A stretch of 64,000 nucleotides of DNA from Gemmatimonadota bacterium. GTDB taxonomy: Bacteria > Gemmatimonadota > Gemmatimonadetes > Gemmatimonadales > GWC2-71-9. The stretch lies in the NCBI GenBank assembly GCA_039588935.1, contig JBDGYW010000001.1, forward strand, positions 13,659 through 77,658, given 5' to 3'. The notes beneath the pieces are model-generated. The model saw only the letters and a list, made by a program, of their open reading frames with translations, had not been told where the DNA came from and searched no databases. Every line of letters begins with the position of its first letter. Position 1 is the stretch's first letter. Shown here one piece after another: positions 8,530-45,524 of the stretch. The position numbers and the translations under genes are program-made.

Positions 8530-8742
8530 GTGAACGGAGCAATGGAACTGTTTTTCCGCGAGCTGGTAGACGAGTATGGCTCGGAGGGGGTGGCTCGCGT
8601 CCTACTCGAGCGTCTCTACAAAAATTGCCAGGAACAGTGGCCACTCAATACGACGTGGGCCGCCAGTGACGAGGGGATAATGACTCATGTTCGTGGGTGG
8701 CTACGCGAAGCAGCGCAGCGACGAACAGGGGCGGCCGGATGA
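8530..8742 (+). CDS. Hypothetical protein (70 aa), short paralog of the N-terminus of 11284..11880
   Basis: ORF track 8491..8742 trimmed to GTG 8530 behind GGAGG. NGAMELFFRELV...QEQWPLN..WAASDEGIMTHVRGWL is shared with 11284. Confidence 0.7.
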   Translation: MNGAMELFFRELVDEYGSEGVARVLLERLYKNCQEQWPLNTTWAASDEGIMTHVRGWLREAAQRRTGAAG

Positions 8743-8918
8743 CGGCACGCAAGACATTCCGCGGCGAGAAGCGGGCGACGAAGGCCGAACTTAAGAAGGA
8801 AGCACGGGAGATCGCGAAGTTCGTCGAGATGTTGTTGCAATTCTCGCACGAAGGCCGCTTCCGTATTCTCCGCGCGCTGTCGGCCTACTTTCGCAACTAC
8901 AACGGAGACGTGAAATAG
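8739..8918 (+). CDS. Hypothetical basic protein (59 aa)
   Basis: ORF track 8697..8918 trimmed to ATG 8739 (ATGA overlap with the previous stop). Confidence 0.55.
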   Translation: MTARKTFRGEKRATKAELKKEAREIAKFVEMLLQFSHEGRFRILRALSAYFRNYNGDVK

Positions 8919-8927
8919 GAGGACGAC

Positions 8928-9527
8928 GTGAGTTACGAACACTGCGAGAAACACGACGAGGATGCGACCAACGGCTGCATGGCGTGTGAGAAGGAGCGGG
9001 TTGCAGCGCTGACGGACGCTGATGTCATCAGCGAACTCTCCGCCATGGCCAGTGGCAACTATCGCCGGACGCCAGAGGAACCGATGTTTGTCCGCGCCAA
9101 CGAAATTCGGAAGCGCTTGAGCAAGGGGCTTGAGGAAAGCGTGGGTGAGTCGTGCGTCGAGTCGCTACGAAGAATGGCGAAGCAGGCGCGCGACAACCTC
9201 ACCGACAGGGAGCGCGAGATCCTCGACAAGCACTTTACACCTCCGCGTCGAGCGGACTCCACGGCCGCATTGCGCACGGAATTAGGGGAGGGGAAGTACA
9301 CCAGGTGGATGGCGCGGCTTTCGGACGGCGAACTCGTCGGCTTGCTATGGTTGGTCGGGGAGTACGCGGCGAGATCCGACTCCCAGGAGCACGACATCGC
9401 AAAGTTTGATCACCCAGGGGACCGCCGGAAGTATGGCGCGTTGAATGGCATCGCTGCCTTCAAGCGCAAGCCGATGAGCCTCGATCTGGTTCGTCTCTTC
9501 ATGCGCAACTGCGTGAATGGAGAGTAG
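8928..9527 (+). CDS. Hypothetical protein (199 aa)
   Basis: ORF track. GTG behind GGAGGACGA 8918-8926. Confidence 0.7.
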   Translation: MSYEHCEKHDEDATNGCMACEKERVAALTDADVISELSAMASGNYRRTPEEPMFVRANEIRKRLSKGLEESVGESCVESLRRMAKQARDNLTDREREILDKHFTPPRRADSTAALRTELGEGKYTRWMARLSDGELVGLLWLVGEYAARSDSQEHDIAKFDHPGDRRKYGALNGIAAFKRKPMSLDLVRLFMRNCVNGE

Positions 9528-9536
9528 AAGGACGTC

Positions 9537-9647
9537 ATGGAAAATGTCTATATCGCGATAGTCGTCGGCACGACCACGCTCCTGGGCGCGCTCATCGGCG
9601 TTCTCGGCGGGCACTTAGCCTCGCGGCGTCGGGACCGTGGAGACTGA
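9537..9647 (+). CDS. Small single-pass membrane peptide (36 aa)
   Basis: Below the ORF-track cutoff. ATG 9537 lies 10 nt after the previous stop. MENVYIAIVVGTTTLLGALIGVLGGHLASRRRDRGD gives a TM helix plus a basic tail. Confidence 0.4.
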   Translation: MENVYIAIVVGTTTLLGALIGVLGGHLASRRRDRGD

Positions 9648-9651
9648 GAGC

Positions 9652-9671
9652 AAAACATGAAGTTATCTTCA
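9652..9671 (+). promoter_or_regulatory. Degenerate early motif copy AAAACATGAAGTTATCTTCA
   Basis: AAAAC-N5-GTTATC upstream of the GGAGG RBS of 9683. Weaker match than the others. Confidence 0.35.
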
Positions 9672-9682
9672 CGGAGGTCACG

Positions 9683-9913
9683 ATGAAGATCCGCATAGTC
9701 AAGCCATCGCAGCGACTGCTCGACTACATCGGGTCGCTTGTGTCGCTCGAGGAACGGCGAACAATCACCGACGATGAACTGCTCAGGCGAGACCGCGCGT
9801 CCGACGACCTGTGGAACGACCTCTCGGACGAGGAACAGGAAGAGGTTCGATCTGGAACGGTGTCCGAAGCGGAAGCCGAGGGTCTCCTGGCCGCACTGAA
9901 GCGTCGACCTTGA
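9683..9913 (+). CDS. Hypothetical acidic protein (76 aa)
   Basis: ORF track. ACGGAGGTCACG-ATG. Confidence 0.65.
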   Translation: MKIRIVKPSQRLLDYIGSLVSLEERRTITDDELLRRDRASDDLWNDLSDEEQEEVRSGTVSEAEAEGLLAALKRRP

Positions 9914-9914
9914 G

Positions 9915-9937
9915 ACTAAACACCAATTTATTATCAG
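9915..9937 (+). promoter_or_regulatory. Early intercistronic motif copy ACTAAACACCAATTTATTATCAG
   Basis: Follows stop TGA 9911-9913. Confidence 0.6.
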
Positions 9938-9946
9938 GAGGCCGAG

Positions 9947-10411
9947 GTGAAGGAGATCATGAAAAAATCAACGCCACTGACGGTCTACGACTGGGTGGCC
10001 TGTGTCGCTCGAATCGTGCCTGAGGCAACCTTTTCAGCCGGGACTCGCATCAGGGACAATAAGCACCGCGTTGTCGTCGAAACTCCATGGATGAACCTGG
10101 AGTGCGTAGTAGAGGAGGATAAGGCGGAGGCTGTTCGCGATCACTTATACACGAAGCGCCCATGTATCGCATGTGAAGGAAAGGGATATGTGGGAACCGC
10201 ACGGGCTCGATGTGCGCACTGCAATGGGGCAGATCTTGAGAGTCGCAATCGCGAGAGCGAGTGCGGCGATGAGCCGGAGTTCGCGATTTGCAGTCAATGC
10301 GGGCTCGCCATCGTGCTTGCAGCCAAGGAGAGCGGGCGACTGGTCAAACACGAGGACCCGTGTTCGCGAAAGCCCTGCCTGGGCATGGCCTCAACGGGTT
10401 CGCCGAAGTAG
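9947..10411 (+). CDS. Cys-rich protein (154 aa) with DnaJ-type CxxCxGxG-like fingers
   Basis: ORF track. GTG 9947 (ATG 9959 is an alternative). CIACEGKGYV, CAHCNG, CSQCG. Confidence 0.65.
   Translation: MKEIMKKSTPLTVYDWVACVARIVPEATFSAGTRIRDNKHRVVVETPWMNLECVVEEDKAEAVRDHLYTKRPCIACEGKGYVGTARARCAHCNGADLESRNRESECGDEPEFAICSQCGLAIVLAAKESGRLVKHEDPCSRKPCLGMASTGSPK
10236..10248. repeat. 13-bp dyad copy TTGAGAGTCGCAA
   Basis: Inside CDS 9947..10411, read as cTT GAG AGT CGC AAt (LESRN). Confidence 0.7.
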
Positions 10412-10423
10412 GAGGACGACGGC

Positions 10424-10609
10424 ATGGACTGTTTGCTAACTTTGGACGAGTTTGTGGAGGAATTCGTCAGGGAAATGACTCGTGACGCAGATGCTTTCAA
10501 GTTGCACACAGAGGGACAGACGATGGCGCCAGGACGGATGTGCGTCGACGAATGGCATCGCCTGTATGTCGCCTTCCTGGACCAGCGTGGCGACGGTGTG
10601 CGCAACTAG
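10424..10609 (+). CDS. Hypothetical protein (61 aa)
   Basis: ORF track. GGAGGACGA at 10411-10419. Confidence 0.6.
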   Translation: MDCLLTLDEFVEEFVREMTRDADAFKLHTEGQTMAPGRMCVDEWHRLYVAFLDQRGDGVRN

Positions 10610-10618
10610 GAGGACAAC

Positions 10619-11236
10619 ATGGCACAACTAGACCAGGCATGGCCGGAGCCGAAGGAACGCCCAATTTTGTTCAGCGGACCGATGGTGCTGGCGATCCTTG
10701 CGGGCAAGAAGACGCAAACGCGGCGGGTGATTAAACCGTCGTGGTCACGATGTCTCGACTTGGACGATCCGGACGACCGCGAGAAAGCGCGGCTGGGTTG
10801 TCCACACGGCACATCTCGGGATCGGTTGTGGGTCCGTGAGACATTCTACTGCGACGACTACCGCTACCCGAACGCTCCACCAGGAGAACTCTTACAGCTG
10901 ATGGAGTATCGAGCTGACCATGATTGTCGGACGTGGGAGGCGGGTTGTCCATGCTGCGATGAGGAGGGGCGCGCGTCTTGGAGGCCGTCTATTCATATGC
11001 CCCGATGGGCCTCGCGGATCACACTTGAAGTGATCGCTGTGAGGGTTGAGCGAGTGCAGTCGATCAGCGAGCAAGGCGTGCTCGCCGAGGGCATCGAGCC
11101 CGCGATCGTTGCCGGTGCGGCCTGGCACTGGCGACCGTTCCAGCACCTCTGGGACTCGATAAACGCCAAGCGCGGATACCCGTGGGCGGAAAACCCGTGG
11201 GTCTGGGTCGTCGAATTCAAGGTCCAGCGAAACTAA
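10619..11236 (+). CDS. ASCH/PUA-like domain protein (205 aa)
   Basis: ORF track. TAGGAGGACAAC-ATG. The N-terminus PILFSGPMVLAILAGKKTQTRRV is typical of ASCH-type phage proteins. Confidence 0.65.
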   Translation: MAQLDQAWPEPKERPILFSGPMVLAILAGKKTQTRRVIKPSWSRCLDLDDPDDREKARLGCPHGTSRDRLWVRETFYCDDYRYPNAPPGELLQLMEYRADHDCRTWEAGCPCCDEEGRASWRPSIHMPRWASRITLEVIAVRVERVQSISEQGVLAEGIEPAIVAGAAWHWRPFQHLWDSINAKRGYPWAENPWVWVVEFKVQRN

Positions 11237-16309: not shown

Positions 16310-16750
16310 ATGCCAGGAGTAAACCCAAAAACTGGCCGACCAGGGCCAGCGCCAAATCCACCGCGCGATGGAGACAAAATCCAGGCGCGACAACGGATCA
16401 ACGTCGAAGTCAAGGGGGGAAGGCGACCGCACCCCAACGAACTTCCATGTGCCGACTGTGGACATGTTTGGTCGCCCGGCGAGCGCCGGCACGAATATGA
16501 CCACCACCTCGGATACTCACCCGAGCACCACTATGACGTGCAGTCCGTCTGCACGCTGTGCCATGCCAAAAGGGACAGTGGGAAGAAGGCGCAAACCCAC
16601 TGCGTTCATGGGCACGAGTTCACAGATGAGAACACCAAGTACAGGGCAAACGGAACCCGTGAGTGCATAGCGTGCCGAAGGAGAATAGACAGGGACCGGC
16701 GCGACGCGGCGTGGTGGCGGGAGTACAGAAGGAGGCGTCAAAATGGGTGA
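16310..16750 (+). CDS. HNH endonuclease-like protein
   Basis: ORF track 16133..16750 trimmed to ATG 16310 behind GGAGGACGA 16297-16305. CADCGH...HEYDHHLGY...VCTLCHAKRD plus a second Cys/His cluster. Confidence 0.65.
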   Translation: MPGVNPKTGRPGPAPNPPRDGDKIQARQRINVEVKGGRRPHPNELPCADCGHVWSPGERRHEYDHHLGYSPEHHYDVQSVCTLCHAKRDSGKKAQTHCVHGHEFTDENTKYRANGTRECIACRRRIDRDRRDAAWWREYRRRRQNG

Positions 16751-17546
16751 GAACAGCAATATTCCATGGACCGACGACACGTTTAACACGCACTGGGGAT
16801 GCACGAAGGTAGCCCCGGAATGTCAAAACTGCTACGCCGAGAAGGTGGGCAAGCGGTTCGGGACGTCATGGGGACCGAAGGCCTTCCGCCGCTTCTTCGG
16901 CGACAAGCACTGGAACGAGCCGCGTAAGTGGCAGCGTAGGGCCGAGAAGGAGGGTCGCCGACGCCGCGTCTTCTGCGGCTCGATGTGTGACGTCTTCGAG
17001 GGCCGCGACGACCTGAACGAGCACCGCGAGCGGCTCTGGACGTTGATCGAAGAGACGCCAAACCTAGACTGGCTCCTGCTCACGAAGAGGCCAGAGAACA
17101 TGCAGGCGATGCTGCCCGGCTCCTGGCTGGAGTACCCGCGCTACAACGTCTGGCTTGGCACCACGTCCGGAACGCAGAAGTCTGCAGACAAGAACATCCC
17201 GCATCTCTTGAACACGCCGGCCCTCGTCCACTTCGTCAGTTGCGAGCCGATTCTCGAACCAGTCAACTTCGAGGCTTACTTCGCGAGGGCCGAGGAGTTG
17301 ATCAAGCCGCACTACCCCTGGGTCATCGTCGGCGATGAGTCCGGCTACCACCGCCGGCCGGCGAAGATCGAGTGGGTGCGAGACATCCAAAAGCAGTGCG
17401 AGCAGGCCGGTGTGCCGTTCTTCTTCAAGCAATTCCACCGCCCGTCGATCATGCGCGGCGACCGCGACCTCGGAAACGTGATCAAGGTCGAGTGCCCAGA
17501 CCTGGACGGCAAGGCCTATCGAGAGTTCCCGCACGTCGTCGTCTGA
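16743..17546 (+). CDS. DUF5131 (phage Gp37/Gp68) family protein
   Basis: ORF track. NIPWTDDTFNTHWGCTKVAPECQNCYAEK carries the family-typical IxWTD...GC-x6-C-xx-CYA three-Cys N-terminus. Confidence 0.8.
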   Translation: MGENSNIPWTDDTFNTHWGCTKVAPECQNCYAEKVGKRFGTSWGPKAFRRFFGDKHWNEPRKWQRRAEKEGRRRRVFCGSMCDVFEGRDDLNEHRERLWTLIEETPNLDWLLLTKRPENMQAMLPGSWLEYPRYNVWLGTTSGTQKSADKNIPHLLNTPALVHFVSCEPILEPVNFEAYFARAEELIKPHYPWVIVGDESGYHRRPAKIEWVRDIQKQCEQAGVPFFFKQFHRPSIMRGDRDLGNVIKVECPDLDGKAYREFPHVVV

Positions 17547-18025
17547 TGGCCAGTCGGACCAAAGACCACTGGACGACGCCCGGGGTCGTCGTCGAGCTGC
17601 TCCACAAGTTCTGGGACGGCCCGCCGTTCCTGGACCCCTGCTCGAACCCGCGCTCGATCGTCGGCGCGAAGGTGGAGTGGTACGGGCCACCGCATGGCAA
17701 GGACGGCCTGGTCCTGCCCTGGACAGTGGGCGGTCTCGTCTACTGGAATCCGCCCTACTCCGACAAACCGAGCTGGGCGCGACGAGCCACTGAGCAGTTC
17801 ATCTACGCGAAGGTTGAGTCCATCGGACTGATCCCCGCGGACACCGATACCGACTGGTTCTTCCGCTACTGCTGGACCGCGCCCAGGCGCTCCTTCTGGA
17901 AAGGGCGTCTAAAATTTGGTGGTGATACGTCCTATGGTGCGAGATTTCCAAGCGTTTTGGTCTACCACGGGCGCCGCGTCTCCAGGTTCAACTCCTACTT
18001 TTGGAAGCTAGGCCACTGTTGCTAG
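17546..18025 (+). CDS. Phage-type DNA N6-adenine methyltransferase
   Basis: ORF track 17372..18025 trimmed to ATG 17546 (TGATG overlap). DHWTTP..., LDPCSN, catalytic NPPYS motif. Confidence 0.8.
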   Translation: MASRTKDHWTTPGVVVELLHKFWDGPPFLDPCSNPRSIVGAKVEWYGPPHGKDGLVLPWTVGGLVYWNPPYSDKPSWARRATEQFIYAKVESIGLIPADTDTDWFFRYCWTAPRRSFWKGRLKFGGDTSYGARFPSVLVYHGRRVSRFNSYFWKLGHCC

Positions 18026-18104: not shown

Positions 18105-18767
18105 ATGGGGAGCACCAGCATGGCCAAGCGGACTGCCTCGAGCAAGCTATCCCGCAAAGTTGCGAGTCGCAAGAGCCGGAAGAAGCGGAACCTCAAGAAG
18201 CGCTCCAACCCGTCGGCGGTAGCCAAAGAGGCTGACGGCATTATCTCTCACACCTGGGCGGAGCTCGCCACCATGGCGCTTCCCGGACTCGGTGGTTATG
18301 CTGGCGGTCGTGCAGCCGGGTGGCTTACCTACCGCGTTCTGAAAAAGCGATCGCCGAGACTCGCCAAACACGCCGGACCACTCGGATCTGTGGCCTTCGC
18401 GATCGGCGCCTCCTACGCAACCCGTCGATTCGAGTCGCTGCAGAAGTACGACCTGCCGATCATCGTCGGCGCCTGGATCGCCGCGCTCCAAAGTGGTCTC
18501 CAGACCTACGCTCCAGCCATGTCCTGGGTTCTCGGCGACTGGAACATGACCGAGTTCCTCGCGCCGGCCAAGGCCGCAGCGAGAGCGAACGCCGCACAAG
18601 TCGAGCAGCTCGAGGGCTACGACCAGGCCTACGCGGAAGCCTTCGAGAGCGCGCCCGCGGCAGAGCCGCTGCCGGCAACCAGCGGCGAGGACACCTTCGA
18701 CGACATCCCTGGTCTCAATGACGAGGGGGTGAGGACGGGGATCTTTGCCGGCGGGCTGTCGAACTAG
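18105..18767 (+). CDS. Basic-hydrophobic-acidic protein (220 aa), short paralog of 48682..50211
   Basis: ORF track (ATG 18120 behind GGGAG is an alternative start). K/R-rich N-terminus, hydrophobic core, and a C-terminal TGIFAGG shared with the 509-aa basic protein. Confidence 0.7.
   Translation: MGSTSMAKRTASSKLSRKVASRKSRKKRNLKKRSNPSAVAKEADGIISHTWAELATMALPGLGGYAGGRAAGWLTYRVLKKRSPRLAKHAGPLGSVAFAIGASYATRRFESLQKYDLPIIVGAWIAALQSGLQTYAPAMSWVLGDWNMTEFLAPAKAAARANAAQVEQLEGYDQAYAEAFESAPAAEPLPATSGEDTFDDIPGLNDEGVRTGIFAGGLSN
18160..18172. repeat. 13-bp dyad, perfect palindrome TTGCGAGTCGCAA
   Basis: Inside the 5' part of CDS 18105..18767, read as gTT GCG AGT CGC AAg (VASRK). Confidence 0.75.
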
Positions 18768-18787: not shown

Positions 18788-18800
18788 TTTAAAGCCGCAA
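18788..18800. promoter_or_regulatory. 13-bp dyad copy TTTAAAGCCGCAA
   Basis: Intergenic. Fused to the GGGAGGAG RBS of 18814. Confidence 0.6.
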
Positions 18801-18813: not shown

Positions 18814-20076
18814 ATGGCCAACCTGTTCACGAATCTTGCCGTGCCGGCCGGCGACGGCGTGGGCGCGTCTGTAGACACGCGGGCCTACGGTCGCAAGCGG
18901 ACTATCACAATCCAAGGGAATTTTGTCGCGACGCTAACGATCGAGTTCTCGCAGGACAACACCAACTTCTTTCCGCTGATGAGCTTTACTAATGCCGGCC
19001 GAAAGACGGTTGACATCGCAGCTGCGTACATGCGCGTTCGCAGATCAGGTACGGTCGGCGGCACAGCAAACGTCGATGTCGGCTCCGACGATTCCGGTGG
19101 CGAGTACGTTGCTCTCCCGGTTCCGGCCAACGATGGCGCCGGCGCAGCCGTAGACGTGCTTGCCTTCGGCACGTTCAACACGGTAGTGGCATCGGGGACG
19201 TTCACCGGAACGATCACCATCGAGATCAGCGAGGACAATACCGTCTGGGCTCAGAAGATGTCGTTCAATGGCCCGGTCTCCTGGGCCTCGATGGAGTTCG
19301 TGGCGCGCTACATGAGGGTGCGCCGTGTTGGGACTGATCCCCTCCTCCTCGGCACAGGAACCGTTTTCGTCGGCGCTATCAACGACGACAAGGTCGCTGC
19401 CGCACTCGGTTGGCTCGCAGCAACCGACGAAAAGGACAGCGCCTACAACGCGGTCCTGAACGACCTCGTTCAGTGTGACACGAGCGGTGGCGCGTTCAAC
19501 GTCACGCTGCCCCTGGCCGCTGCTTCGGCCGTGGTGACGCCGACGCGCACCTATGGCGGCCACATAGCCGTCAAGGTGACAACGGGCACCAATGTTGTCA
19601 ACGTCGTCCGGTCCGGTGCAGACACCATCGACGGTGCAACCAGCGTGAGCATCCCGGAGGATGGCTGCGTCATCTTCGTATCTGATGGGGTAAGCGCCTG
19701 GCGCATGGTCGCGATCAACCGCGAGACCATGCTCAACCAGGCCAATAACTATAGCGGCGACCAGGGAAGCGGCCCGATCGATCTGGTTGACGAGAACAAC
19801 TTCGCCACCCCTTGCGTTCAGGGTAACTACTTCCGCCTCACGGCCACCGGCAGCCACACGATGGCGGCGCCGACTGGCCCGACCGCCGGCCATACGTACA
19901 TGTGGCGCTTCGTTAGCTCGGGGGCCGGCCGCGTGATCACCTTTCCAGGGGCATTCAAGTTCCCGAATGGAGCTGGTTTCACAACGGGTAGCGGTGGGGC
20001 TGGCAGCGTTGACATCGTTACCGCTGCCTATAACGGGACCAACTTCGACTGCGTCGGGCAGCCGAATATGTCGTAG
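18814..20076 (+). CDS. Fibre/adhesin family member A (420 aa): tandem N-terminal beta-domains plus a fibre-like C-terminus
   Basis: ORF track. N-terminus MANLFTNLAVPAGDGVGA. Two ~90-aa repeats, each ending in YMRVRR.G. The C-terminal part (CDTSGGAFNVTLP...) resembles phage tail-fibre distal domains. Confidence 0.8.
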   Translation: MANLFTNLAVPAGDGVGASVDTRAYGRKRTITIQGNFVATLTIEFSQDNTNFFPLMSFTNAGRKTVDIAAAYMRVRRSGTVGGTANVDVGSDDSGGEYVALPVPANDGAGAAVDVLAFGTFNTVVASGTFTGTITIEISEDNTVWAQKMSFNGPVSWASMEFVARYMRVRRVGTDPLLLGTGTVFVGAINDDKVAAALGWLAATDEKDSAYNAVLNDLVQCDTSGGAFNVTLPLAAASAVVTPTRTYGGHIAVKVTTGTNVVNVVRSGADTIDGATSVSIPEDGCVIFVSDGVSAWRMVAINRETMLNQANNYSGDQGSGPIDLVDENNFATPCVQGNYFRLTATGSHTMAAPTGPTAGHTYMWRFVSSGAGRVITFPGAFKFPNGAGFTTGSGGAGSVDIVTAAYNGTNFDCVGQPNMS

Positions 20077-20089
20077 TCGAGACTCGCAA
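20077..20089. promoter_or_regulatory. 13-bp dyad copy TCGAGACTCGCAA
   Basis: Starts 1 nt after stop TAG 20074-20076 and ends exactly at GTG 20090. No SD in between. Confidence 0.7.
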
Positions 20090-22096
20090 GTGTTTCTAAA
20101 CCCAGTTTGTCATTGGGCAGGTAGACAGGCTCCGTGCCAGGGCGATCTACTCACCCTCGATTACACCAACGGGCCACCGGTGCAGGTCTTTCCAGCAACG
20201 GCGGCTGCAATGGCGACGCAGCTCGGAATCCCGGCCGCGACCCCGTCGCACATTTGGAACTTTGAGGAGACGAGTGGGGACGCTCTCGATCTGGTCGGAT
20301 CCGTTGATCTGACGCCCAATGGCTATGGTGCGGTGCCGATTTTGCGCAACAGGAATGCGTCTGGGTTCGGCAACGGCGCCGGCATTCTCACGGGCAATAA
20401 GCGCGCAATCGAGATGCAGGCGAATACCAACCAGCGCTGGGAGGCCGGCAGCAACAACGACCTCGATCAGGGTTTGAACGACAGCTTCGCGTTCATCGTC
20501 GTGGTGCGTGCCGCCTGGGAAAACCAGGGCGAGTGGCAAATCTTCTCCAAGCACACCGGGGGCGCTAACCCGGGCTACCTCCTTGGACTTGGTACCGCTG
20601 GTCAGTTCTTCTGGAGGCTTTGGGGTGCGGCAGGTAGCGCGAACTCCAACACCCTCTCGCTGCACGGCCGAGGTGCCTGGCACTGCCTGATCATCAGCGT
20701 CAATCGCACCACGGACCAGATGTACATCCGTAGTAGCTACAGGGGCTACGACGTGGATGCTATTGGAGCGGTCACGTCTCCGTCGAATGCGACGACCTTT
20801 CGAGTCGGCGGTGGTCCAGCAAGCGGCGGCTCTCTGGCGAGTACCCGATGCCAGATTGCCTACTGCGCGGAATTCGAGGGGGCTGCGGCCGAGGCGCTCG
20901 GCGATGGCTCTGCGGCGATGGCCGCCCTCTGGACGCACGACGACGATCCGAACGGCAAGATCTCTAGCCTTGAGGTCATCAACAACGGCGTCATGTCGAT
21001 CATCGACGAGCAGGCGGACATCGGGGTCCGGATCCACGACTGGCACGTGAAGAGTTTCCCGTACGGTTACCACAGCCCCTTCCTGCACGGTGGAAAACTG
21101 GGCCTCTTCGTTCCGTATCTCGACACCACGCAGCACATCGTCAACACCGACCGCTTCACACAGCCTACTTGGACCAAGGTCAACATCGCCACTACCGCGT
21201 CCATCACACTCATGGACGACTCACCGCGCGACTGGAAGGAGGCCGAGCAGGTCAGCGCGACGGCGGATAACGGCTATCTCTACGACCAATTCAACTCGGT
21301 GGCCGGTCGTCTTTACTGCCTGTCGATTTTCGTCAAGAGGCACTCCACGCAGGGCAGCGACGTGGCTGGTCGGCTTATTTTCTGGAACGCTAGCGCCGCC
21401 GGGGAACGTGCCGGGCAAGATTTTCTAGCTACCGATCAGTGGAAGGAGATCCGCATCGTGACCACCGCCGCGGTTGGTCAGATCTCAAGCCAGCTTCGCG
21501 TACGCATAGACACGAACGGTGAAAAAATCTCCCTATCACGCTGCACGGCGACTGACAACACAAACTACCCGCAGGGTTGCTACGCTGGTGGCAGCGTAGC
21601 AACCCTCAACGGCTACCAGTTCGATGGTCTGATGCCATCGACGGAGGAGTGGTTCCACAGCGACGAGGGCGAGGTCTACATTCTGTTTGGCACCGTGACG
21701 AACGTCCAGGAGTACGTCGCCCAGCCGTTCAATGTGCGAGGAACCGCCAACAACAAGGACCGCCACTACGGAGTGATCAACACGAGTGAGCAGATCGGCT
21801 ACGTCATCTATGATGATGTTCCGGCGGTTGTTGCAAACTACTACACTGCCGCGGTCCCGGATCTCTCGGCCAGGCATGTGCTTCGCTACCAGTGGGATGC
21901 CGGGAGCGCCAGCCTCGGTGGCTTCCATGCGAGAACGATTCTCGACGGCGTGATCACGAATGGACCAGCCGTCGGCTGGACTCCCGACGGGAATGAGCTG
22001 GACCACTTCTATGTGGGCATGAGCTATGTCTACACCACACCGCTCGGAGGCTTCATCGCCGGTATCTGTGTCTATTCGACGCCGCAGCCCTTATGA
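20090..22096 (+). CDS. LamG/concanavalin-A-like lectin domain protein with a C-terminal CBM-like domain (668 aa)
   Basis: ORF track 19967..22096 trimmed to the in-frame GTG 20090, after the stop of 18814..20076 (ATG 20210 is an alternative). FAFIVVVRAAW...WQIFSK...GYLLGL...FFWRLWG...WHCLIISVN is a LamG-type signature. Confidence 0.7.
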   Translation: MFLNPVCHWAGRQAPCQGDLLTLDYTNGPPVQVFPATAAAMATQLGIPAATPSHIWNFEETSGDALDLVGSVDLTPNGYGAVPILRNRNASGFGNGAGILTGNKRAIEMQANTNQRWEAGSNNDLDQGLNDSFAFIVVVRAAWENQGEWQIFSKHTGGANPGYLLGLGTAGQFFWRLWGAAGSANSNTLSLHGRGAWHCLIISVNRTTDQMYIRSSYRGYDVDAIGAVTSPSNATTFRVGGGPASGGSLASTRCQIAYCAEFEGAAAEALGDGSAAMAALWTHDDDPNGKISSLEVINNGVMSIIDEQADIGVRIHDWHVKSFPYGYHSPFLHGGKLGLFVPYLDTTQHIVNTDRFTQPTWTKVNIATTASITLMDDSPRDWKEAEQVSATADNGYLYDQFNSVAGRLYCLSIFVKRHSTQGSDVAGRLIFWNASAAGERAGQDFLATDQWKEIRIVTTAAVGQISSQLRVRIDTNGEKISLSRCTATDNTNYPQGCYAGGSVATLNGYQFDGLMPSTEEWFHSDEGEVYILFGTVTNVQEYVAQPFNVRGTANNKDRHYGVINTSEQIGYVIYDDVPAVVANYYTAAVPDLSARHVLRYQWDAGSASLGGFHARTILDGVITNGPAVGWTPDGNELDHFYVGMSYVYTTPLGGFIAGICVYSTPQPL

Positions 22097-22109
22097 TCTA
22101 ACCAGGCTC

Positions 22110-22122
22110 TTTAGAGCCACAA
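22110..22122. promoter_or_regulatory. 13-bp dyad copy TTTAGAGCCACAA
   Basis: Intergenic. Embedded in the palindrome GGCTCTTTAGAGCC, 2 nt upstream of the GGAGGA RBS of 22136. Confidence 0.65.
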
Positions 22123-22135
22123 TCGGAGGAACCCA

Positions 22136-23518
22136 ATGGCAAATCTATTTTACAGTCTCGCCGTTCCTGCCGCCGATGGCGTAGGAGCCGGAACGAGCGT
22201 TTCAGCGGCCGGAAACAAGAAAACCATTTCCGTGACCGGCACCTGGGTCGGCACGATCACTGTCGAGGTGAGCATCGACGGTACCAACTACTTTCCCCTG
22301 AAGAGTTACACTCACCCGGACGAGATTACGGTGGATGCTCCGTGCGCAAATATGCGTGTTAGAAGATCCGGAACCCTGAGCGGCACCCCGGCCGTGGGGG
22401 TCTCCGCCGAAGACGACGGGACCGAGAGCAACACGCTGAACATGCCGGTTGCAGACGGGGTCGGAACGGCTATGGACGTCAGCGATTGGGGCAACACGGT
22501 TGGCCTGCTCTTGACTGGCACCTGGACCGGGACGGTGACGATCGAAATCAGCGAGGACGGCACGAGCTGGGCGCAGATCAAGAGTTTCACCGCGAATGAC
22601 TACGTGGTGATGACCTTCATCGCGAGGCGGATGCGCGTCCGTCGTTCGGGCAACAGCACCGGAACTCCGCAGGTGGACATTGCCGCTGGAAACGACGCGG
22701 ACACGCTCGTGAACATCTTCGGCGATGGCTCGGACGGCGACGTCACGCTCGGAAGCAACACCACGCTGACGCGCGATATGTACTACAACTCGCTGAGCAT
22801 GGCCGGCTACGACCTCACGACCGCTGGCTATCGGGTCTTTGTCAAGGAGTCTCTGCTCATCCCGGCGCTCTCGAGTATCCACAACTCGGGCGCTAGCGGC
22901 GTCGCTGACGCGGCCGGGGCTGCGGTCTCGGCCGCGATGCTCGGTGGCTCTGGTGCGGGTGGTGCAGGTCAGACAGGCGCTGGATCGGCCGGCGGTGCGA
23001 TCGCACAGTGCATTGGCGGCGCGGGCGGTGCAGGTGGCGCGGGCGGCGGCGGTGCCCAGGCTGGAGGCGCGGCCGGCGCCAAGACGGCGCCAACCGCCAC
23101 GGAGCCGCTCCCCCGTGCCCTTCCAGTCATTGCTCTCGGTCAGTACTTCACACCCGGTTCCAATCCCGACGTGCTCAAGGGTGGTACCGGAGGCGGCGGG
23201 GGTGGTGGTGACGGTGCGGCCGACGAAGGCGGCGGCGGCGGAAGCGGCGGCGGCGTCGTACTGGTCGCTGCCAACCGTATCGAGATCGCCGCGACTGGTT
23301 CAATCCAGTCGCGTGGTGGCAATGGCGCGGCTGGTACCGCGACGGGCTGTGGCGGCGGCGGTGGTGGTGGTGGCGGCAGCGTAATAGTCGTCTACCGCGC
23401 GCTTCAGAACGCCGGCTCGATCAACGCAACCGCCGGAAGTGGCGGAGCAAGCGGCGGCGGAACCGGAGCACAGGGTGCCTCAGGCAGCGACGGGAACATC
23501 TATCAGAATCAGGTCTAG
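22136..23518 (+). CDS. Fibre/adhesin family member B (460 aa) with a glycine-rich C-terminal domain
   Basis: ORF track. MANLFYSLAVPAADGVGA, two N-terminal repeats, then GDGSDGDVTL...YYNSL and long GGxGG tracts (glycine-rich beta-helix-like). Confidence 0.85.
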   Translation: MANLFYSLAVPAADGVGAGTSVSAAGNKKTISVTGTWVGTITVEVSIDGTNYFPLKSYTHPDEITVDAPCANMRVRRSGTLSGTPAVGVSAEDDGTESNTLNMPVADGVGTAMDVSDWGNTVGLLLTGTWTGTVTIEISEDGTSWAQIKSFTANDYVVMTFIARRMRVRRSGNSTGTPQVDIAAGNDADTLVNIFGDGSDGDVTLGSNTTLTRDMYYNSLSMAGYDLTTAGYRVFVKESLLIPALSSIHNSGASGVADAAGAAVSAAMLGGSGAGGAGQTGAGSAGGAIAQCIGGAGGAGGAGGGGAQAGGAAGAKTAPTATEPLPRALPVIALGQYFTPGSNPDVLKGGTGGGGGGGDGAADEGGGGGSGGGVVLVAANRIEIAATGSIQSRGGNGAAGTATGCGGGGGGGGGSVIVVYRALQNAGSINATAGSGGASGGGTGAQGASGSDGNIYQNQV

Positions 23519-23548
23519 CGACCCACCCTATCGACAGCAACCTGGCTC

Positions 23549-23561
23549 TTTAGAGCCACAA
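23549..23561. promoter_or_regulatory. 13-bp dyad copy TTTAGAGCCACAA
   Basis: Intergenic. Same GGCTCTTTAGAGCCACAA context as at 22110, upstream of 23576. Confidence 0.65.
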
Positions 23562-23575
23562 CCGGAGGAACAATA

Positions 23576-24958
23576 ATGGCAAATCTCTTCTATAGTCTCG
23601 CCGTTCCTGCCGCCGATGGCACGGGGGCCTGGACCAATGTCGCAGCGTCCGGAACGAAGAAGACCATCAACGTTCAGGGAACCTGGGTCGGCACGATTAC
23701 CGTCGAGGTGACCAACGACGCTGGCACCGGCTACCACGCTCTCAAGTCCTTTACTTCGCCTGGTGAAGTGACGCTCGATGCGCCATGTCAGTCCATGCGC
23801 GTTCGTCGCAGCGGGACCGTCAGCGGCACGCCGACTGTCGGTGTGTCCGCCGAGGACGATGGCACGGAAGTCGCGAACCTGCCGGTATCGGCCGGTGATG
23901 GTGTCGGCGCTGGTGTCGATGTCTCCGACTACGGCAACACAATGTCGATCCTGATCGCCGGCACCTGGACGGGAGTCGTTACGATCGAGATCAGCGAGGA
24001 TGGCACCAACTGGGCGCAGATCAAGAGTTTCACCGCGAATGACTACGTGGTGATGACCTTCATCGCGAGGCAGATGCGCGTTCGGCGTTCGGGCAATAGC
24101 GGTGGGACTCCCAATGTGGACGTCGCCGCTGGCAACGACGCCGACACGCTGGTGAACCTGTTCGGTGACGGCTCGGACGGTGACGTGACGCTGGGCGCGC
24201 CAACCACGCTGACCCGCGACATGTACTACAACTCGCTAAACACGGGGGCCTTCGCCCTCAACTGCGCGGGCTACAGGGTCTTCGTCAAGGAAACCCTGAC
24301 TGTCGCAGCGGGCGGATCGATTCACCGCAACGGCAACGCGGCTGCGGCCGAAGTTGCTGGCGCTGCCCTGGCCGCGGCCATGCTTGGCAACTCGGGCGCT
24401 GGCGGAACGGGCGTGAGCGGCAACGGCGCGGCCGGTGGCGCGATTGCCCAGTGCATCGGTGGTGCCGGTGGCGCTGGCGGTACTGGAAACGGTGGGGCGA
24501 CTACGTCTGGCGCTGCTGGGGCTGCGACTGTCCCGACCGCGACAGAGCCGCTCCCACGCGCTCTGCCCGTGATGCTGCTCGGCCAGTACTTCACGCCTGG
24601 CGCTGCGCCTGACGTCCTGAAGGGCGGCTGCGGCGGCGGTAGCGGCGGTGGTGACGGCGCTGCCAACGAAGGCGGTGGCGGTGGCGGTGGCGGTGGCGTT
24701 GTTTTGATCGCGGCCAATAAGATCGACATCGTCGCAACCGGCTCGATCTCTGCGCAAGGCGGCGCCGGCGCTGCCGGAACCGCGGCCAACTGCGGCGGTG
24801 GTGGTGGCGGCGGCGGCGGTGGCATCATCCTCGTCTACCGCGCTCTACAGAACGCGGGTACCATCACGGTGGCTGGTGGCGCTCTCGGTGCTGGCGTATC
24901 CAACGGAACGGACGGAACTGCCGGCGCTGTCGGCGACATCTACCAGAACCAGGTCTAG
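23576..24958 (+). CDS. Fibre/adhesin family member C (460 aa), tandem duplicate of B
   Basis: ORF track. Collinear with 22136..23518 over the full length and contains a 62-bp run identical to B. Confidence 0.85.
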   Translation: MANLFYSLAVPAADGTGAWTNVAASGTKKTINVQGTWVGTITVEVTNDAGTGYHALKSFTSPGEVTLDAPCQSMRVRRSGTVSGTPTVGVSAEDDGTEVANLPVSAGDGVGAGVDVSDYGNTMSILIAGTWTGVVTIEISEDGTNWAQIKSFTANDYVVMTFIARQMRVRRSGNSGGTPNVDVAAGNDADTLVNLFGDGSDGDVTLGAPTTLTRDMYYNSLNTGAFALNCAGYRVFVKETLTVAAGGSIHRNGNAAAAEVAGAALAAAMLGNSGAGGTGVSGNGAAGGAIAQCIGGAGGAGGTGNGGATTSGAAGAATVPTATEPLPRALPVMLLGQYFTPGAAPDVLKGGCGGGSGGGDGAANEGGGGGGGGGVVLIAANKIDIVATGSISAQGGAGAAGTAANCGGGGGGGGGGIILVYRALQNAGTITVAGGALGAGVSNGTDGTAGAVGDIYQNQV

Positions 24959-32845: not shown

Positions 32846-33168
32846 TACATCTTCTCCACGATCAGTTTGACGAGCTCATCCAGCGTTCCGACGAACGCCG
32901 CCTTTCTGTCCGGGCCAATGGAGGGCTCCGCGAGTAGCTGTTCGCGTAGTTTTCCAGCTGTCTTGCACAGATTCTCGTCGCTCAGTTTTCCGAAGCCAGG
33001 GTGGATCCCTTGCTGCTTGAGAGTCGCAACAATTCCGTCGTACTGGTCCTTGACGAGGCGAACCAACTCCTTTCTGGTCACCCCGTACTCGATGTAGGAA
33101 CCGATACAGGTGCCCAGCATCATTCCGACGATGTGCGGGCCGAAGTTCTTCTCGTCCGATTTGCCCAT
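32845..33168 (-). CDS. Hypothetical protein (107 aa; longer forms up to 33309 possible)
   Basis: ORF track 32845..33309. I prefer ATG 33168 behind AAGGAGATACAAG. The in-frame upstream ATGs 33240 and 33309 lack an RBS. Confidence 0.55.
   Translation of the reverse strand: MGKSDEKNFGPHIVGMMLGTCIGSYIEYGVTRKELVRLVKDQYDGIVATLKQQGIHPGFGKLSDENLCKTAGKLREQLLAEPSIGPDRKAAFVGTLDELVKLIVEKM
33017..33029. repeat. 13-bp dyad copy TTGAGAGTCGCAA
   Basis: Inside CDS 32845..33168 (coding strand GTT GCG ACT CTC AAG). Confidence 0.7.
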
Positions 33169-34911: not shown

Positions 34912-35293
34912 GTCGTCCTCCTCTCGGCCGCGGCCGGTCAGGAATGTGAGGCGGGCGAGCCCGCCAGGGAACTGTACGCGCGACAGCATCGAGCGCACGT
35001 TGAATGTCGGTAGCTCGCTTATGGCAGACATCGATGTCCTCGGCCAGGACGGCGAGCTTGCCCTGGGACGCGGTGACGGCCACGCTGTTCTCTTCGACCG
35101 TCGTCTGCATGTCAATGTCGAGTAAGTCCTTTAGAGTCGCAACTTCAGCCTCGAGCCGCCTGGCCTTAGCCTTCAGCTCTCGGATCTCACCAGTGTTGTA
35201 GCCGATCGCATAGCCGAGAAAGACCACGCCAAGCACGTACCAGATCCAGAGCGGTCGAAGATCGCGAGGCGGCCGGCCGGCCCATTCATCCAT
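34874..35293 (-). CDS. Membrane-anchored coiled-coil protein (139 aa)
   Basis: ORF track 34874..35326 trimmed to ATG 35293, which overlaps the upstream stop. TM segment LWIWYVLGVVFLGYAIGY followed by ELKAKARRLEAEVATLKDLL. Confidence 0.6.
   Translation of the reverse strand: MDEWAGRPPRDLRPLWIWYVLGVVFLGYAIGYNTGEIRELKAKARRLEAEVATLKDLLDIDMQTTVEENSVAVTASQGKLAVLAEDIDVCHKRATDIQRALDAVARTVPWRARPPHIPDRPRPRGGRHGPSVPNPRGGP
35130..35142. repeat. 13-bp dyad copy TTTAGAGTCGCAA
   Basis: Inside CDS 34874..35293 (coding strand GTT GCG ACT CTA AAG). Confidence 0.7.
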
Positions 35294-36017
35294 CGATGAG
35301 CCCCGTATTCCGCTCGTCCCAGGCATGACGGTCTAACTCTGGCAAGAGGTCGCGGACGTCGGCGTCGGTGTCGATGTCGTTCGTCCAGTCGGAAATAACG
35401 GTCATCAGCTCCTCGGCGTACTCATGCAGGGTCGATGGCTTCAGGCCAAGGAACTGCATCCAGATCCAGAGCAAATTCCGAAGATGCCCAGCCTGCCCCC
35501 TGTCGAACTGAAGTTTTCGACACTCCACTCGCATGAGCAGCTCGGCCGTCGTGTTCACGGCCGCTCCGGCCATGGTGTAGGCGAATAGCTCTCCCGTGGC
35601 TCGGTTGAGGTCGTCCGTGCCGAAGAACATAACGTCTTCGTCGCAAGATAGGATGGTGTCCATCGCCGCGCGCGAGTAGACGACATCCCCAAGAAGGAAA
35701 ATGTTCCGGTGGGCACTCCAGTGCGGGTCGGTCCCGTGCATGCCGTCAAGGATGCAGGACCCGGCGTAGCGCAGCGTGAGTAGCTCGCAGCCGTACTCCT
35801 GTTCGACTAGCGTTGAGAAATCCGGCCAGCCCACGACAGTTGGCTCCATCGTCATCGACGTGGGTGCGTCGACGGGCATGTACCAGTGCGACCTGACAAG
35901 ACCGATCGTCCTGGCGAGGATCGGCTGGCCGCCAACGCGCAGGAGCTGCTTCCGGAACTTCAAGCCGGTCATGCGGGATTGCATCCCCTGCGCCATGATG
36001 AATATTCTGGTGCTCAT
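35286..36017 (-). CDS. Nucleotidyltransferase (NTP_transferase / MobA-like fold)
   Basis: ORF track. N-terminus IFIMAQGMQSRMTGLKFRKQLLRVGGQPILARTI matches the G-x-G-x-R...K signature of sugar-nucleotidyl/cytidylyl-transferases. Confidence 0.7.
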   Translation of the reverse strand: MSTRIFIMAQGMQSRMTGLKFRKQLLRVGGQPILARTIGLVRSHWYMPVDAPTSMTMEPTVVGWPDFSTLVEQEYGCELLTLRYAGSCILDGMHGTDPHWSAHRNIFLLGDVVYSRAAMDTILSCDEDVMFFGTDDLNRATGELFAYTMAGAAVNTTAELLMRVECRKLQFDRGQAGHLRNLLWIWMQFLGLKPSTLHEYAEELMTVISDWTNDIDTDADVRDLLPELDRHAWDERNTGLIDG

Positions 36018-37485: not shown

Positions 37486-37631
37486 TTCCGGTTCTCCTTT
37501 CGTGGCCGCAGATAGCGCTCTAGCGCTCGACAGACGATCTTGGTTCGAGTGACCCCCTCGGCCTCGGCCTTGCGGCTCAGGCTGGCCCAGAGTTTCTCAG
37601 GTATCAGGATGTGTGTGTTGTGGAGTTTCAC
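37482..37631 (-). CDS. Ribbon-helix-helix (CopG/Arc-like) protein (49 aa)
   Basis: Below the ORF-track cutoff. GTG 37631 (GTGA overlap with the GT1 stop) and stop TGA overlapping the next ATG. My translation is MKLHNTHILIPEKLWASLSRKAEAEGVTRTKIVCRALERYLRPRKENRK, a typical RHH pattern. Confidence 0.65.
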   Translation of the reverse strand: MKLHNTHILIPEKLWASLSRKAEAEGVTRTKIVCRALERYLRPRKENRK

Positions 37632-38815
37632 AAAGCCTCCAAAAGGCGTCGAAATTCTGCTCCGATGCTCGCGTACGAGTACCGTTTCAGGAAGTCGGCC
37701 CTGGCCTGGCAGACCCGGTCGGCGCCCCAGGTCTCATCGGTCGGATCGCGACCGGCTCGGGACTCGAAGAGATGCCGCATCCGTGTCTGGAGCATGGCCA
37801 GGTCGGGCTCTAGCCAGTGCTGCGTAGCATCGACTCCCTTCGGTGCGATCGATTCGATCGCTTTGAGCTTCATGACCTGGCCGCCCATCGCGATCGTTTT
37901 GGCCGAGATCGACGCAGTCCAGATCGCAGGCGTTCGGAAGGTGCGAACCAGGTGCTTCTGTCCCTTGTAACTCGACAAAAACTCCACCTGGCCGCCCTCG
38001 CCAGGCGCGATCACAGGCGCCCCGAGCGCGCAGGCCTCGAAGGCCCCCAGGCCGAAGCCCTCCCCGCGGGTGGCGGTGACGTAGCAATCGCAGGCCTGGT
38101 GAAACTCCAGCAGCTCCGCCTCGGTCAGCCAGCTGTCATCGAAGCTGACCGCTGGGAACTCTCTCAGGTTGGTCCCGAGCTTTAGAGCCTCAAGCGTCGC
38201 CTTGTCCACCTGGTTGGTTTTCAGGTAGAGCTCGACGTTCTCGCGAATGGTGAACTCCGTCAGATAGGCCTTGAGCAGACCCAGTAGATTTTTCCGCTCG
38301 CCCCAGGCGCCGATAGAGTAGAAGGCATAGGGCTCATCGCTGCCGTAATTCCAATTACGGGTCTCGCCCCAGAGCGGCCCGATCGCGTGCGGCAGCACTT
38401 CGACCCGGACGTCCATGTCGGCCTCGACGGTCGCCGCCTTCGCATACGCGCTGGGCATAAGGACCAGGTCGAAGACCTCGCTGAGCGGTCCGGCGAGGGT
38501 AGTCGGCAATCGGCTCGTCTCCCAGGTGGTCACGCAGATCTTCGCGCGGCACTCTGGCATGTAGAGCTGGATGTCACGGACATCGGACGGCATCGCGTGG
38601 ACGATCCAGATGTCATCCGCGGTGTCCTTCGGCCAGCCCGGGGTTGTGATCGCAGCGAGCGGTTCGTAATGCGGCTCCAGGTCGTCGGTATCGCACTCGA
38701 ACATCGGGATGATCCGGAGATCGACCCCGGCCTCGAGAAGGGACATGCAGTAGTCCTGGGCGGCGCGGGCAACACCGTTCGGCTGTGCGAAGGGGCAGAG
38801 GTAGTTAACTTTCAC
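37628..38815 (-). CDS. GT-B fold glycosyltransferase (GT1/GT4-like)
   Basis: ORF track. CYVTATRGEGFGLGAFEACALGAPVIAPGEGGQVEF is the EX7E-type C-terminal sugar-donor motif. Confidence 0.8.
   Translation of the reverse strand: MKVNYLCPFAQPNGVARAAQDYCMSLLEAGVDLRIIPMFECDTDDLEPHYEPLAAITTPGWPKDTADDIWIVHAMPSDVRDIQLYMPECRAKICVTTWETSRLPTTLAGPLSEVFDLVLMPSAYAKAATVEADMDVRVEVLPHAIGPLWGETRNWNYGSDEPYAFYSIGAWGERKNLLGLLKAYLTEFTIRENVELYLKTNQVDKATLEALKLGTNLREFPAVSFDDSWLTEAELLEFHQACDCYVTATRGEGFGLGAFEACALGAPVIAPGEGGQVEFLSSYKGQKHLVRTFRTPAIWTASISAKTIAMGGQVMKLKAIESIAPKGVDATQHWLEPDLAMLQTRMRHLFESRAGRDPTDETWGADRVCQARADFLKRYSYASIGAEFRRLLEAL
38181..38193. repeat. 13-bp dyad copy TTTAGAGCCTCAA
   Basis: Inside the GT1 CDS (coding strand CTT GAG GCT CTA AAG). 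Confidence 0.5.
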
Positions 38816-40896: not shown

Positions 40897-40911
40897 CGTA
40901 TCCTCCCAGGC

Positions 40912-41316: not shown

Positions 41317-41384
41317 GGTGCGCTTCTCCGAAAAGGCTTGGGGTCGATAGCTGGTCTTGGGTGGGAGCTCCGTGAAGTACGGAC

Positions 41385-41397
41385 TTGCGGGTCGCAA
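41385..41397. promoter_or_regulatory. 13-bp dyad copy TTGCGGGTCGCAA
   Basis: In the 122-nt spacer upstream of ATG 41316 (it would be coding only if the long form of the ORF were real). Confidence 0.55.
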
Positions 41398-41438
41398 CCT
41401 CGTCGCGTCCCAGGCGTAGCCCGCGTAGTGTCGACGCC

Positions 41439-41654: not shown

Positions 41655-41671
41655 GCCCCATCGGCTGGCGG

Positions 41672-42037: not shown

Positions 42038-42046
42038 GCGACCAGT

Positions 42047-42361: not shown

Positions 42362-42369
42362 GGGTTCTC

Positions 42370-42948: not shown

Positions 42949-42950
42949 GA

Positions 42951-43538: not shown

Positions 43539-43546
43539 GTCGGCTC

Positions 43547-44176: not shown

Positions 44177-44194
44177 CGCGATCCCCTTCCGGCG

Positions 44195-45522: not shown

Positions 45523-45524
45523 CG

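Follow-up and report, generated by a model that had tools for sequence, protein, structure and literature searches.

A constant tandem beta-sandwich module followed by exchangeable C-terminal parts in four putative receptor-binding proteins of an uncultivated virus

The stretch of DNA analysed here, called the window, is 64,000 nucleotides long (Gemmatimonadota bacterium, assembly GCA_039588935.1, contig JBDGYW010000001.1, positions 13,659 to 77,658; numbering starts at its first letter). It carries four paralogous genes whose products begin with a shared stretch of ~190 amino acids (aa), hereafter the N-module: member 1 (18814-20076, + strand, 420 aa), member 2 (22136-23518, + strand, 460 aa), member 3 (23576-24958, + strand, 460 aa) and member 4 (46538-47893, − strand, 451 aa, GTG start). 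The N-module covers 18814-19383, 22136-22705, 23576-24148 and 47300-47893, respectively. When a hidden Markov model (HMM) of the four N-termini was compared with all 529 open reading frames (ORFs) of at least 50 aa in the window, exactly four ORFs were matched (E from 1e-97 to 1e-105; 2e-99 for member 1). The sequence MSNVF... of member 4 aligns with MANLF... of the other three from residue 1. The four ORFs with a common N-terminus are found where an earlier note on this DNA had placed them. The N-modules are 46-58% identical in pairs, and 76% in the tandem pair 22136/23576. The N-terminus MANLFxNLAVPAGDG shows by eye no apparent signal peptide.

Downstream of the N-module the proteins differ. 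In member 1 two distal modules follow, i.e., module A (19438-19710, residues ~209-299), which holds the CDTSGGAFNVTLP motif, and module B (19732-20022, residues ~307-403), which is related by BLASTP to the family members P0033 and P0045. Member 4 has a distinct C-terminus (46541-47299); its product is also called on the contig JBTXWH010000002.1 of an NCBI metagenome-assembled genome (MAG). The C-termini had been described as unrelated, and this holds in general, except that members 2 and 3 are tandem paralogues there too: their C-termini are glycine-rich and ~71% identical, and the two genes have 70% nucleotide identity.

The N-module is made of two tandem repeats of ~95 aa (18814-19098 and 19099-19383 in member 1). 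The presence of two repeats is confirmed by the comparison of the repeat 1 and repeat 2 profiles of 72 family members (hhalign, probability 99.96%, P 5e-39, 45% identity over 89 columns). Repeat 1 is 44-59% identical across the paralogues (77% in the tandem pair) and 41-44% identical to repeat 2 of its own protein. Since equivalent repeats of different paralogues are closer than the two repeats of one protein, the internal duplication is older than the paralogues; since, moreover, all 150 best representatives of an exhaustive search (see below) carry two matching stretches, it is, on these sequence comparisons, ancestral to the family.

No match above threshold was obtained for the N-module in Pfam, in PHROGs, in the PDB sequences (profile search) or in INPHARED (tblastn), in agreement with the earlier note, in which the domain had not been recognised as any described fibre anchor. 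The note had also pointed to a likeness of the stretch IE.S.DG..W to discoidin domains. In three of the four window proteins this stretch is matched by Pfam F5_F8_type_C (PF00754) with E values of 0.002-0.015 and 15.9-18.6 bits, i.e., below the cut-off of 28.2 bits; Pfam gives no such match for the fourth protein, and E <=0.01 is reached by 6 of the 72 family members. In terms of sequence the likeness is thus found below the Pfam threshold only, and it is at the level of fold that tandem discoidin pairs are recovered. The N-module belongs to no named family and is a previously unnamed domain.

A model of member 1 (420 aa) was built with AlphaFold2 from a 72-sequence alignment. Residues 1-190 form two consecutive all-beta domains with a predicted local distance difference test score (pLDDT) of 94-98, and the remainder has a pLDDT <50. 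The top Foldseek match of the N-module in the PDB is XepA of prophage PBSX (6I56, E 4e-7). Further matches are tandem discoidin pairs (factor V/VIII C1-C2 and neuropilin b1b2, E ~2e-5), botulinum HA70 and PHM; the collagen-binding domain of collagenase is also among the lectin-like matches. The proteins matched best in BFVD are uncharacterised and carry the label uncultured Caudovirales (E 2e-12), and stand-alone phage proteins of ~100 aa are also found, e.g., in Synechococcus phage S-CAM8 (TM ~0.6-0.7, 21-27% identity). The N-module is thus modelled as a tandem of small jelly-roll/discoidin-like beta-sandwiches. The structure prediction proposed in the earlier note for residues 1-190 yields a confident two-domain beta fold, but the likeness to XepA and discoidin stays at fold level and assigns no named family.

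The resemblance to these proteins has limits. XepA consists of two 4+4 beta-sandwich (jelly-roll) domains in one chain, assembled into a pentameric dumbbell (PMC6834076). The two-domain fold of XepA and of YomS (SPbeta) matches the N-module without detectable sequence homology (no PDB sequence match, 13% identity in the Foldseek alignment). In XepA the domains are separated by a 30-aa linker, the dumbbell is pentameric, and the protein, encoded in a lysis cassette, is not found in mature particles; here, on the contrary, the domains are directly in tandem, N-terminal to large variable modules and encoded in a structural block. The tandem discoidin domains of factor V/VIII and neuropilin match the two-domain unit at fold level, but the Pfam score is below the gathering score, the domains are of ~95 aa instead of ~150 aa, and no ligand-binding spikes can be inferred.

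A reading of the N-module as a double-jelly-roll (DJR) major capsid protein of the Bamfordvirae was rejected as primary reading: none of the DJR capsid proteins (PRD1 P3, PM2 P2, B345 of Sulfolobus turreted icosahedral virus (STIV) and others) is found in the top 50 Foldseek PDB matches. It is also disfavoured by (i) the presence of up to four paralogues; (ii) a conservation lower than that of a neighbouring 193-aa protein described below; (iii) the lack of a likely window gene with a Walker A motif, when a DJR capsid gene is usually accompanied by an FtsK/HerA ATPase.

A word-indexed search gave 68 relatives, all annotated as "hypothetical". An exhaustive HMMER search with a single-repeat profile gave 1,334 clusters at 50% identity, 817 of them with E <=1e-10. 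In all 150 representatives listed for these clusters (lengths of 146-1195 aa) the repeat that matches best falls in the first ~200 residues, and most of the ORFs matched in the loci open with the N-module at residue 1; its place at the extreme N-terminus, as claimed before, is thus the same in every member inspected. On one ENA contig (contig_58308, 89,256 bp, locus L014) two adjacent family members of 471 and 343 aa are found at 8593-11032.

On the contrary, at least 17 unrelated classes of C-terminus can be distinguished among the first 72 members. The entire C-terminus of member 1 is 65% identical to residues 431-645 of the 645-aa protein P0192. Module A recurs in ~25 other members, at varying positions and sometimes twice. 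PF26209, named Phage_phiTE_241_C, is listed in precomputed tables for P0026, P0033 and P0045 (marked weak for the last). The C-terminus of member 4 is 44-51% identical to P0233 and P0195, and the glycine-rich C-terminus of members 2 and 3 recurs in P0236, P0275 and P0208. The swapping of C-terminal modules, which the earlier note had proposed to look for in relatives, is thus borne out: the distal modules of the window are found on other backbones and in other arrangements.

The larger relatives give an indication on function. A distal module of Pect-lyase_RHGA_epim type (1.3e-20) is present in an 836-aa relative (L003), Phage_depo_C (6.9e-9) in a 705-aa relative (L011), and a PHROG tail protein match (7e-31) in a 610-aa relative (L013). 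Other PHROG matches of relatives are tail fibre (1.4e-36), tail spike, pre-neck appendage, baseplate wedge, EPS depolymerase, head decoration and virion structural protein, i.e., every annotated PHROG matched by the larger relatives is a virion protein or a depolymerase. In two members collagen-like G-X-Y runs come straight after the N-module, and trimeric stalks are therefore implied. It is chiefly from these distal matches and from the collagen-like runs that a role in receptor binding or as depolymerases, with the N-terminus as anchor, draws its support. The polarity of conservation observed in the sequences, i.e., a fixed N-module and varied C-termini that are horizontally exchanged, is typical of phage receptor-binding proteins.

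The genomic context was then considered. Member 4 is located between the genes of two conserved proteins, of 193 aa (47988-48569, − strand) and of 231 aa (45796-46491, − strand). The order of the conserved core block, with sizes in aa as in the window, is 582 (acidic coiled coil), 176, 329, 310 (PG-binding), 162, 153, 509, 193, 231, ... 121, then the family member(s). In 13 of 19 close-clade loci at least one family member is found downstream of the 193-aa gene, in the same orientation and no more than 10 kb away, and in the window and in L008 a family member is the very next gene after it. The location of the family genes in a structural block is thus supported by synteny.

The 193-aa protein is hyperconserved: it forms 767 clusters at 90% identity, the 120 listed being 72-94% identical, and has no annotation anywhere. 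Its AlphaFold2 model has a pLDDT of 74, and its Foldseek matches are mostly viral jelly-roll capsid proteins, i.e., those of turnip yellow mosaic virus (TYMV), a tombus-like virus, circoviruses, sobemoviruses and Sulfolobus polyhedral virus 1 (SPV1), together with PRD1 P3 and vaccinia D13. This model suggests that it is probably the major capsid protein, of single-jelly-roll type, of an undescribed lineage. As for the capsid-like genes among which member 4 had been placed, the conserved and syntenic core block is there, but the word capsid depends on a medium-confidence model. The 231-aa protein, with a coiled-coil N-terminus and a beta-rich C-terminus, is 42-54% identical in 9 relatives and syntenic with the 193-aa gene. 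Neither protein has a match in INPHARED (tblastn) or anything significant in the PDB sequence searches, and the same is true of the 193-aa profile. No profile-profile relation was found between the 231-aa and 193-aa proteins, nor between either of them and the N-module.

The window has no terminal repeat. The Logan contig SRR34092662_1, identical to the window, runs from window position 64000 on to position 1 via ~16.5 kb (with L032 and L033); since it bridges both ends, the map is circular and of ~80.5 kb. The 16.5-kb gap holds a tyrosine integrase, a helix-turn-helix regulator, ParB, C5 and other DNA methylases, SLT and two M23 peptidases. The integrase overlaps the start of the window and adjoins a tRNA-Val at 1053-1128. 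Shine-Dalgarno sites, integrase and tRNA indicate an apparently bacterial virus. Among ~45 window and locus proteins Pfam and PHROGs recognise only GT4, PG_binding, DUF5131, Dam, NTP_transf_3 (weak) and Transglut_core (weak).

Tailed-phage genes were sought in the precomputed Pfam tables for L001 and L031-L034 and in every window ORF of at least 400 aa. No terminase, portal, HK97 capsid, tail tube or tape-measure gene is recognisable by Pfam or PHROG wherever the ~80.5-kb map was scanned. The ORFs of at least 400 aa are only the four family genes, a LamG-like protein, a basic protein and a coiled-coil acidic protein, a few further ones being set aside because their strand and codon GC indicate that they are non-coding. 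The canonical Walker A motif ([GA]xxxxGK[ST]) is absent from the likely genes of the window, and in the gap it is found only in a ParB-like ORF of 383 aa; a packaging ATPase was thus sought without success in window and gap, where no FtsK/HerA ATPase is recognisable. A HerA/Zot-like ATPase is seen only in a more distant relative (L003). Judged from the gene content, the virus may lack an ATP-driven packaging motor, like SPV1 and FLiP (Flavobacterium-infecting, lipid-containing phage). A jelly-roll capsid without packaging ATPase has a precedent in SPV1 (PMC8812541).

These absences bear on a first alternative, i.e., that the four proteins are fibres or spikes of a tailed phage, with an N-module bound to the baseplate or to a tail adaptor and with tail genes too divergent to be recognised. 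The spike, fibre, baseplate-wedge and pre-neck-appendage matches of the relatives and the Caudovirales label of the best BFVD matches are in its favour, and the architecture is that of modular tailed-phage spikes and fibres (T7 gp17-type adaptor): a conserved N-terminal part, exchanged C-terminal modules and multiple paralogues, with distal modules homologous between the two groups in the case of the relatives. However, modules can be shared with tailed phages without any tail, no tail gene is detectable, the anchor has no relation to known adaptors (nothing in PHROG, Pfam or INPHARED matches it), the large ORFs are limited to those named above, no likely gene except the ParB-like ORF carries a canonical Walker A motif, and the most conserved protein is modelled as a jelly roll. 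This alternative is considered very unlikely.

A second alternative starts from the fold. The N-module could be a carbohydrate- or membrane-binding lectin, and the proteins soluble or acting at the cell surface outside the virion, as lysis factors of XepA type or free depolymerases. The top PDB match is to a protein of a lysis cassette and is followed by the lectin-like discoidin pairs, HA70 and the collagen-binding domain; the F5/8 type C matches, although sub-threshold, go in the same direction, and genes for a GT4 glycosyltransferase and for a nucleotidyl-transferase-like protein are present in the genome. This is nevertheless held to be unlikely. The proteins have no signal peptide apparent by eye; their genes are in the core block, beside the putative capsid gene, when the lysis-type genes (SLT, M23) are away in the 16.5-kb gap; a targeting lectin is not expected as the invariant N-terminal part of proteins with at least 17 varying C-terminal classes; and collagen-like stalks point to fibres.

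MAG contigs of 68-89 kb with homologues of the 193-aa protein have been assigned to bins of seven unrelated phyla, a scatter that mis-binning of viral contigs would produce. The protein is also encoded on eleven close IMG/VR contigs, and nine of them are of 75-86 kb. A distant clade (L026-L030, IMG/VR, 95-179 kb) has a ~250-aa homologue with 31% identity, and no N-module protein lies within 10 kb of it. In one contig of this clade (L028) a 596-aa Walker A protein is encoded directly upstream of the homologue; it has no PDB relative. No cultured or deposited relative of the lineage is present in INPHARED, and no description of it was found in the literature.

This distribution is relevant to a reversed polarity, in which recognition of a conserved host receptor would fall to the N-module, and different sites of the virion would be bound by the variable C-termini. 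A lectin-like N-module would suit such a role. In the relatives, however, it is the C-terminal modules that are enzymatic or receptor-binding (pectate-lyase beta-helix, depolymerase C-domain, tail-fibre tips), and if the hosts are as diverse as the bins, a conserved receptor is unlikely. A reversed polarity is thus regarded as extremely improbable.

The reading favoured here, with somewhat better than even chances, is that the four genes encode proteins which are attached to the virion and act in receptor binding or as depolymerases, the capsid anchor being constant and the distal modules swappable. They would belong to an uncultivated temperate virus with a genome of ~80.5 kb, and the four paralogues would be exposed at the surface of its particle. 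The first ~190 residues, i.e., the two jelly-roll-like beta-sandwiches, would be the constant part by which the protein docks onto or into the capsid, itself built probably from the 193-aa jelly-roll-like protein of the adjacent gene. The exchangeable modules downstream would bind or cleave structures of the host surface, and several paralogues with different distal modules would give several specificities to one particle. The proteins would probably be trimeric. With moderate confidence, the virus itself is taken to be temperate, tailless and membrane-containing, with a jelly-roll capsid. The virion-attachment design that the earlier note had suggested is thus supported by the constant N-module, the shuffled C-termini, the tail-spike and depolymerase homology of the relatives and the structural block, the attachment itself being deduced from these features.

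Several observations weigh against this reading: (i) the distal homology to receptor-binding or depolymerase domains is that of the relatives, and the distal modules of the four window proteins match no annotated family in Pfam, PHROGs, PDB or INPHARED; (ii) the N-module is also lectin-like, since it resembles discoidin pairs and botulinum HA70; (iii) the 193-aa protein is weakly assigned as a capsid protein, with a pLDDT of 74 and Foldseek values of E 1.8e-4 at best and TM ~0.3; (iv) 6 of the 19 close-clade loci have no family member within 10 kb of the 193-aa gene; (v) the two family members of L014 sit among cellular genes (upstream acyl-CoA dehydrogenase, TetR, ABC transporter); (vi) the location on the virion is wholly inferred. 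Concerning the distal modules, the labels fibre-tip-like and beta-helix-like given in the earlier note to the window C-termini have no supporting match in Pfam, PDB or INPHARED, and the C-terminus of member 1 is modelled with a pLDDT <50; the PDB sequence search gave nothing significant for the C-termini of members 1 and 4, nor did tblastn against INPHARED for any of the three C-terminal types. Concerning L014, no other gene of the virus lineage is found within the locus and the neighbours are uninformative; elements of another kind may also carry the N-module, or the contig may be a chimera.

The N-module might also be a building block of the capsid rather than a peripheral anchor, i.e., a capsomer or vertex unit of a jelly-roll capsid. 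This is doubtful, though it deserves consideration. The collagen-like stalks and beta-helix modules of the relatives would imply trimers, and the six small jelly rolls of a trimer would form a pseudo-hexameric base able to take the position of a capsomer in a lattice of 193-aa single-jelly-roll hexamers; alternatively a pentamer would form the vertex. The family would then represent interchangeable "armed capsomers" of an undescribed lineage of temperate bacterial viruses of ~75-86 kb, seemingly membrane-containing and tailless and, at least for this genome, without packaging ATPase, whose nearest architectural analogue would be the archaeal SPV1. With SPV1 (Portogloboviridae) the virus has in common a single small jelly-roll capsid candidate, the lack of a packaging ATPase, a very basic protein beside the capsid gene and many small membrane proteins. 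The SPV1 chain 6oj0_Z has the highest target-normalised TM-score among the 50 listed matches of the 193-aa model, this value being weak (0.37). However, SPV1 is archaeal with a 20-kb genome, against ~80 kb in an apparently bacterial virus here, and the similarity is weak and without sequence relation.

Other particles offer comparisons for the capsid anchor of the favoured reading. In PRD1 (Tectiviridae), the N-terminal part of the spike protein P5 is tied at the vertex to the penton P31, and a trimeric shaft of collagen-like type leads to a distal knob that binds the receptor. The collagen-like runs that follow the N-module directly in two family members recall this arrangement. The differences are that two ~95-aa domains in tandem make up the anchor here, that each genome can have several paralogues and that no FtsK/HerA ATPase is present. 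P31 is a jelly-roll penton protein (PMC6834076). Neither P31 nor P5 gave a sequence match with the N-module or appears in its top 50 Foldseek matches. PM2 P1 and the STIV turret protein A223, both located at the vertex, unite capsid-embedded jelly roll(s) and outward domains in one polypeptide; neither is among the top 50 Foldseek PDB matches of the N-module.

A constant anchor with a swappable tip is a familiar design, but the anchor of tandem mini-jelly-rolls appears undescribed, as does the virus lineage. The unnamed anchor domain defines more than 1,300 protein clusters without annotation in any source searched. If it were named, annotation pipelines could flag the host-range determinants of a whole virus lineage, and a pool of depolymerase and adhesin modules that the lineage has in common with tailed phages would be exposed. 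Should both the jelly-roll capsid and the lack of a packaging ATPase be confirmed, the portoglobovirus architecture of archaea would have in this virus a bacterial counterpart with a large genome, and the virus would bear on the evolution of jelly-roll capsids.

Upstream of the 193-aa gene lies the gene of an extremely basic 509-aa protein (48682-50211, − strand), syntenic in relatives, where it is immediately upstream of the putative capsid gene. Its first ~300 residues are almost purely K/R/A/T and are followed by a hydrophobic segment, an acidic stretch of EEMGEY type and a C-terminal GIFAGG motif; the protein is a candidate DNA-condensing core protein. A short paralogue of 220 aa (18105-18767, + strand; BLASTP E 9e-7) has the same layout, including the GIFAGG motif. 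It heads the second cluster, formed by the three + strand family members.

This cluster also includes a ConA/LamG-like protein without N-module (20090-22096, + strand; the JGI gene call starts from ~20210 and gives 628 aa). The LamG assignment of the earlier note is plausible: the homologues P0321 and P0320 carry Laminin_G_3 (6.8e-13 and 3.3e-5) and the family profile matches the lectin-like HCN domain of botulinum NTNH (9e-4), but the window protein itself has no Pfam match at E <=1. It has no homologue among the N-module family members.

All four family genes are preceded by a copy of the 13-bp dyad TTKAGAGYCRCAA, a near-palindrome with the ideal form TTGCGAGTCGCAA. The copies are at 18788-18800, 22110-22122 and 23549-23561 (+ strand), 13-14 nt ahead of the ATG of members 1, 2 and 3, and at 47894-47906 (− strand), where the copy abuts the GTG start of member 4. 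The earlier note was right on this point, but the dyad is not specific: with at most one mismatch 35 copies are found across the genome, against 0.37 expected, on both strands, 20 of the 35 being inside ORFs and 15 intergenic (e.g., 10236-10248, 33017-33029, 50328-50340 and 62116-62128). Copies are often 0-31 nt ahead of the starts of core-block genes; they precede the 193-aa gene by 22 nt, the 231-aa gene by 31 nt and the 509-aa gene by 117 nt, and a copy with 2 mismatches abuts the GTG at 20090. The dyad was found in the window/L001 and in L006, and is absent from more distant relatives. As the copies are dispersed genome-wide, the dyad was rejected as a mark of the N-module family. Its distribution in the sequence suggests a genome-wide regulatory or binding motif, for which a promoter or the binding site of a regulator are possibilities.

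In the region 40900-53900 (− strand) at least 11 small proteins have a single hydrophobic segment; in most of them it is close to the C-terminus, and a K/R tail often comes after it (e.g., 42370-43128, 42047-42637, 43547-44176 and 52834-53823). As predicted from their sequences, such proteins would fit a membrane-containing particle.

The conserved 176-aa core protein (53832-54362, − strand; 46-63% identity in relatives) has a weak match to the transglutaminase core, i.e., a cysteine protease fold (E 9.6e-4), so a maturation protease is possible. Two further genes adjoin the core block: a GT4 glycosyltransferase (37628-38815, − strand, PHROG 7.7e-21), of which a homologue is also present near family genes in L003 and L013, and a MobA-like nucleotidyl-transferase (35286-36017, − strand, weak match). 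From their annotation, a glycosylation of the particle or of the host surface is possible. Finally, the region directly upstream of the second family cluster (16743-18025, + strand) encodes a DUF5131 protein (1.2e-66) and a phage-type Dam methyltransferase (1.5e-12).

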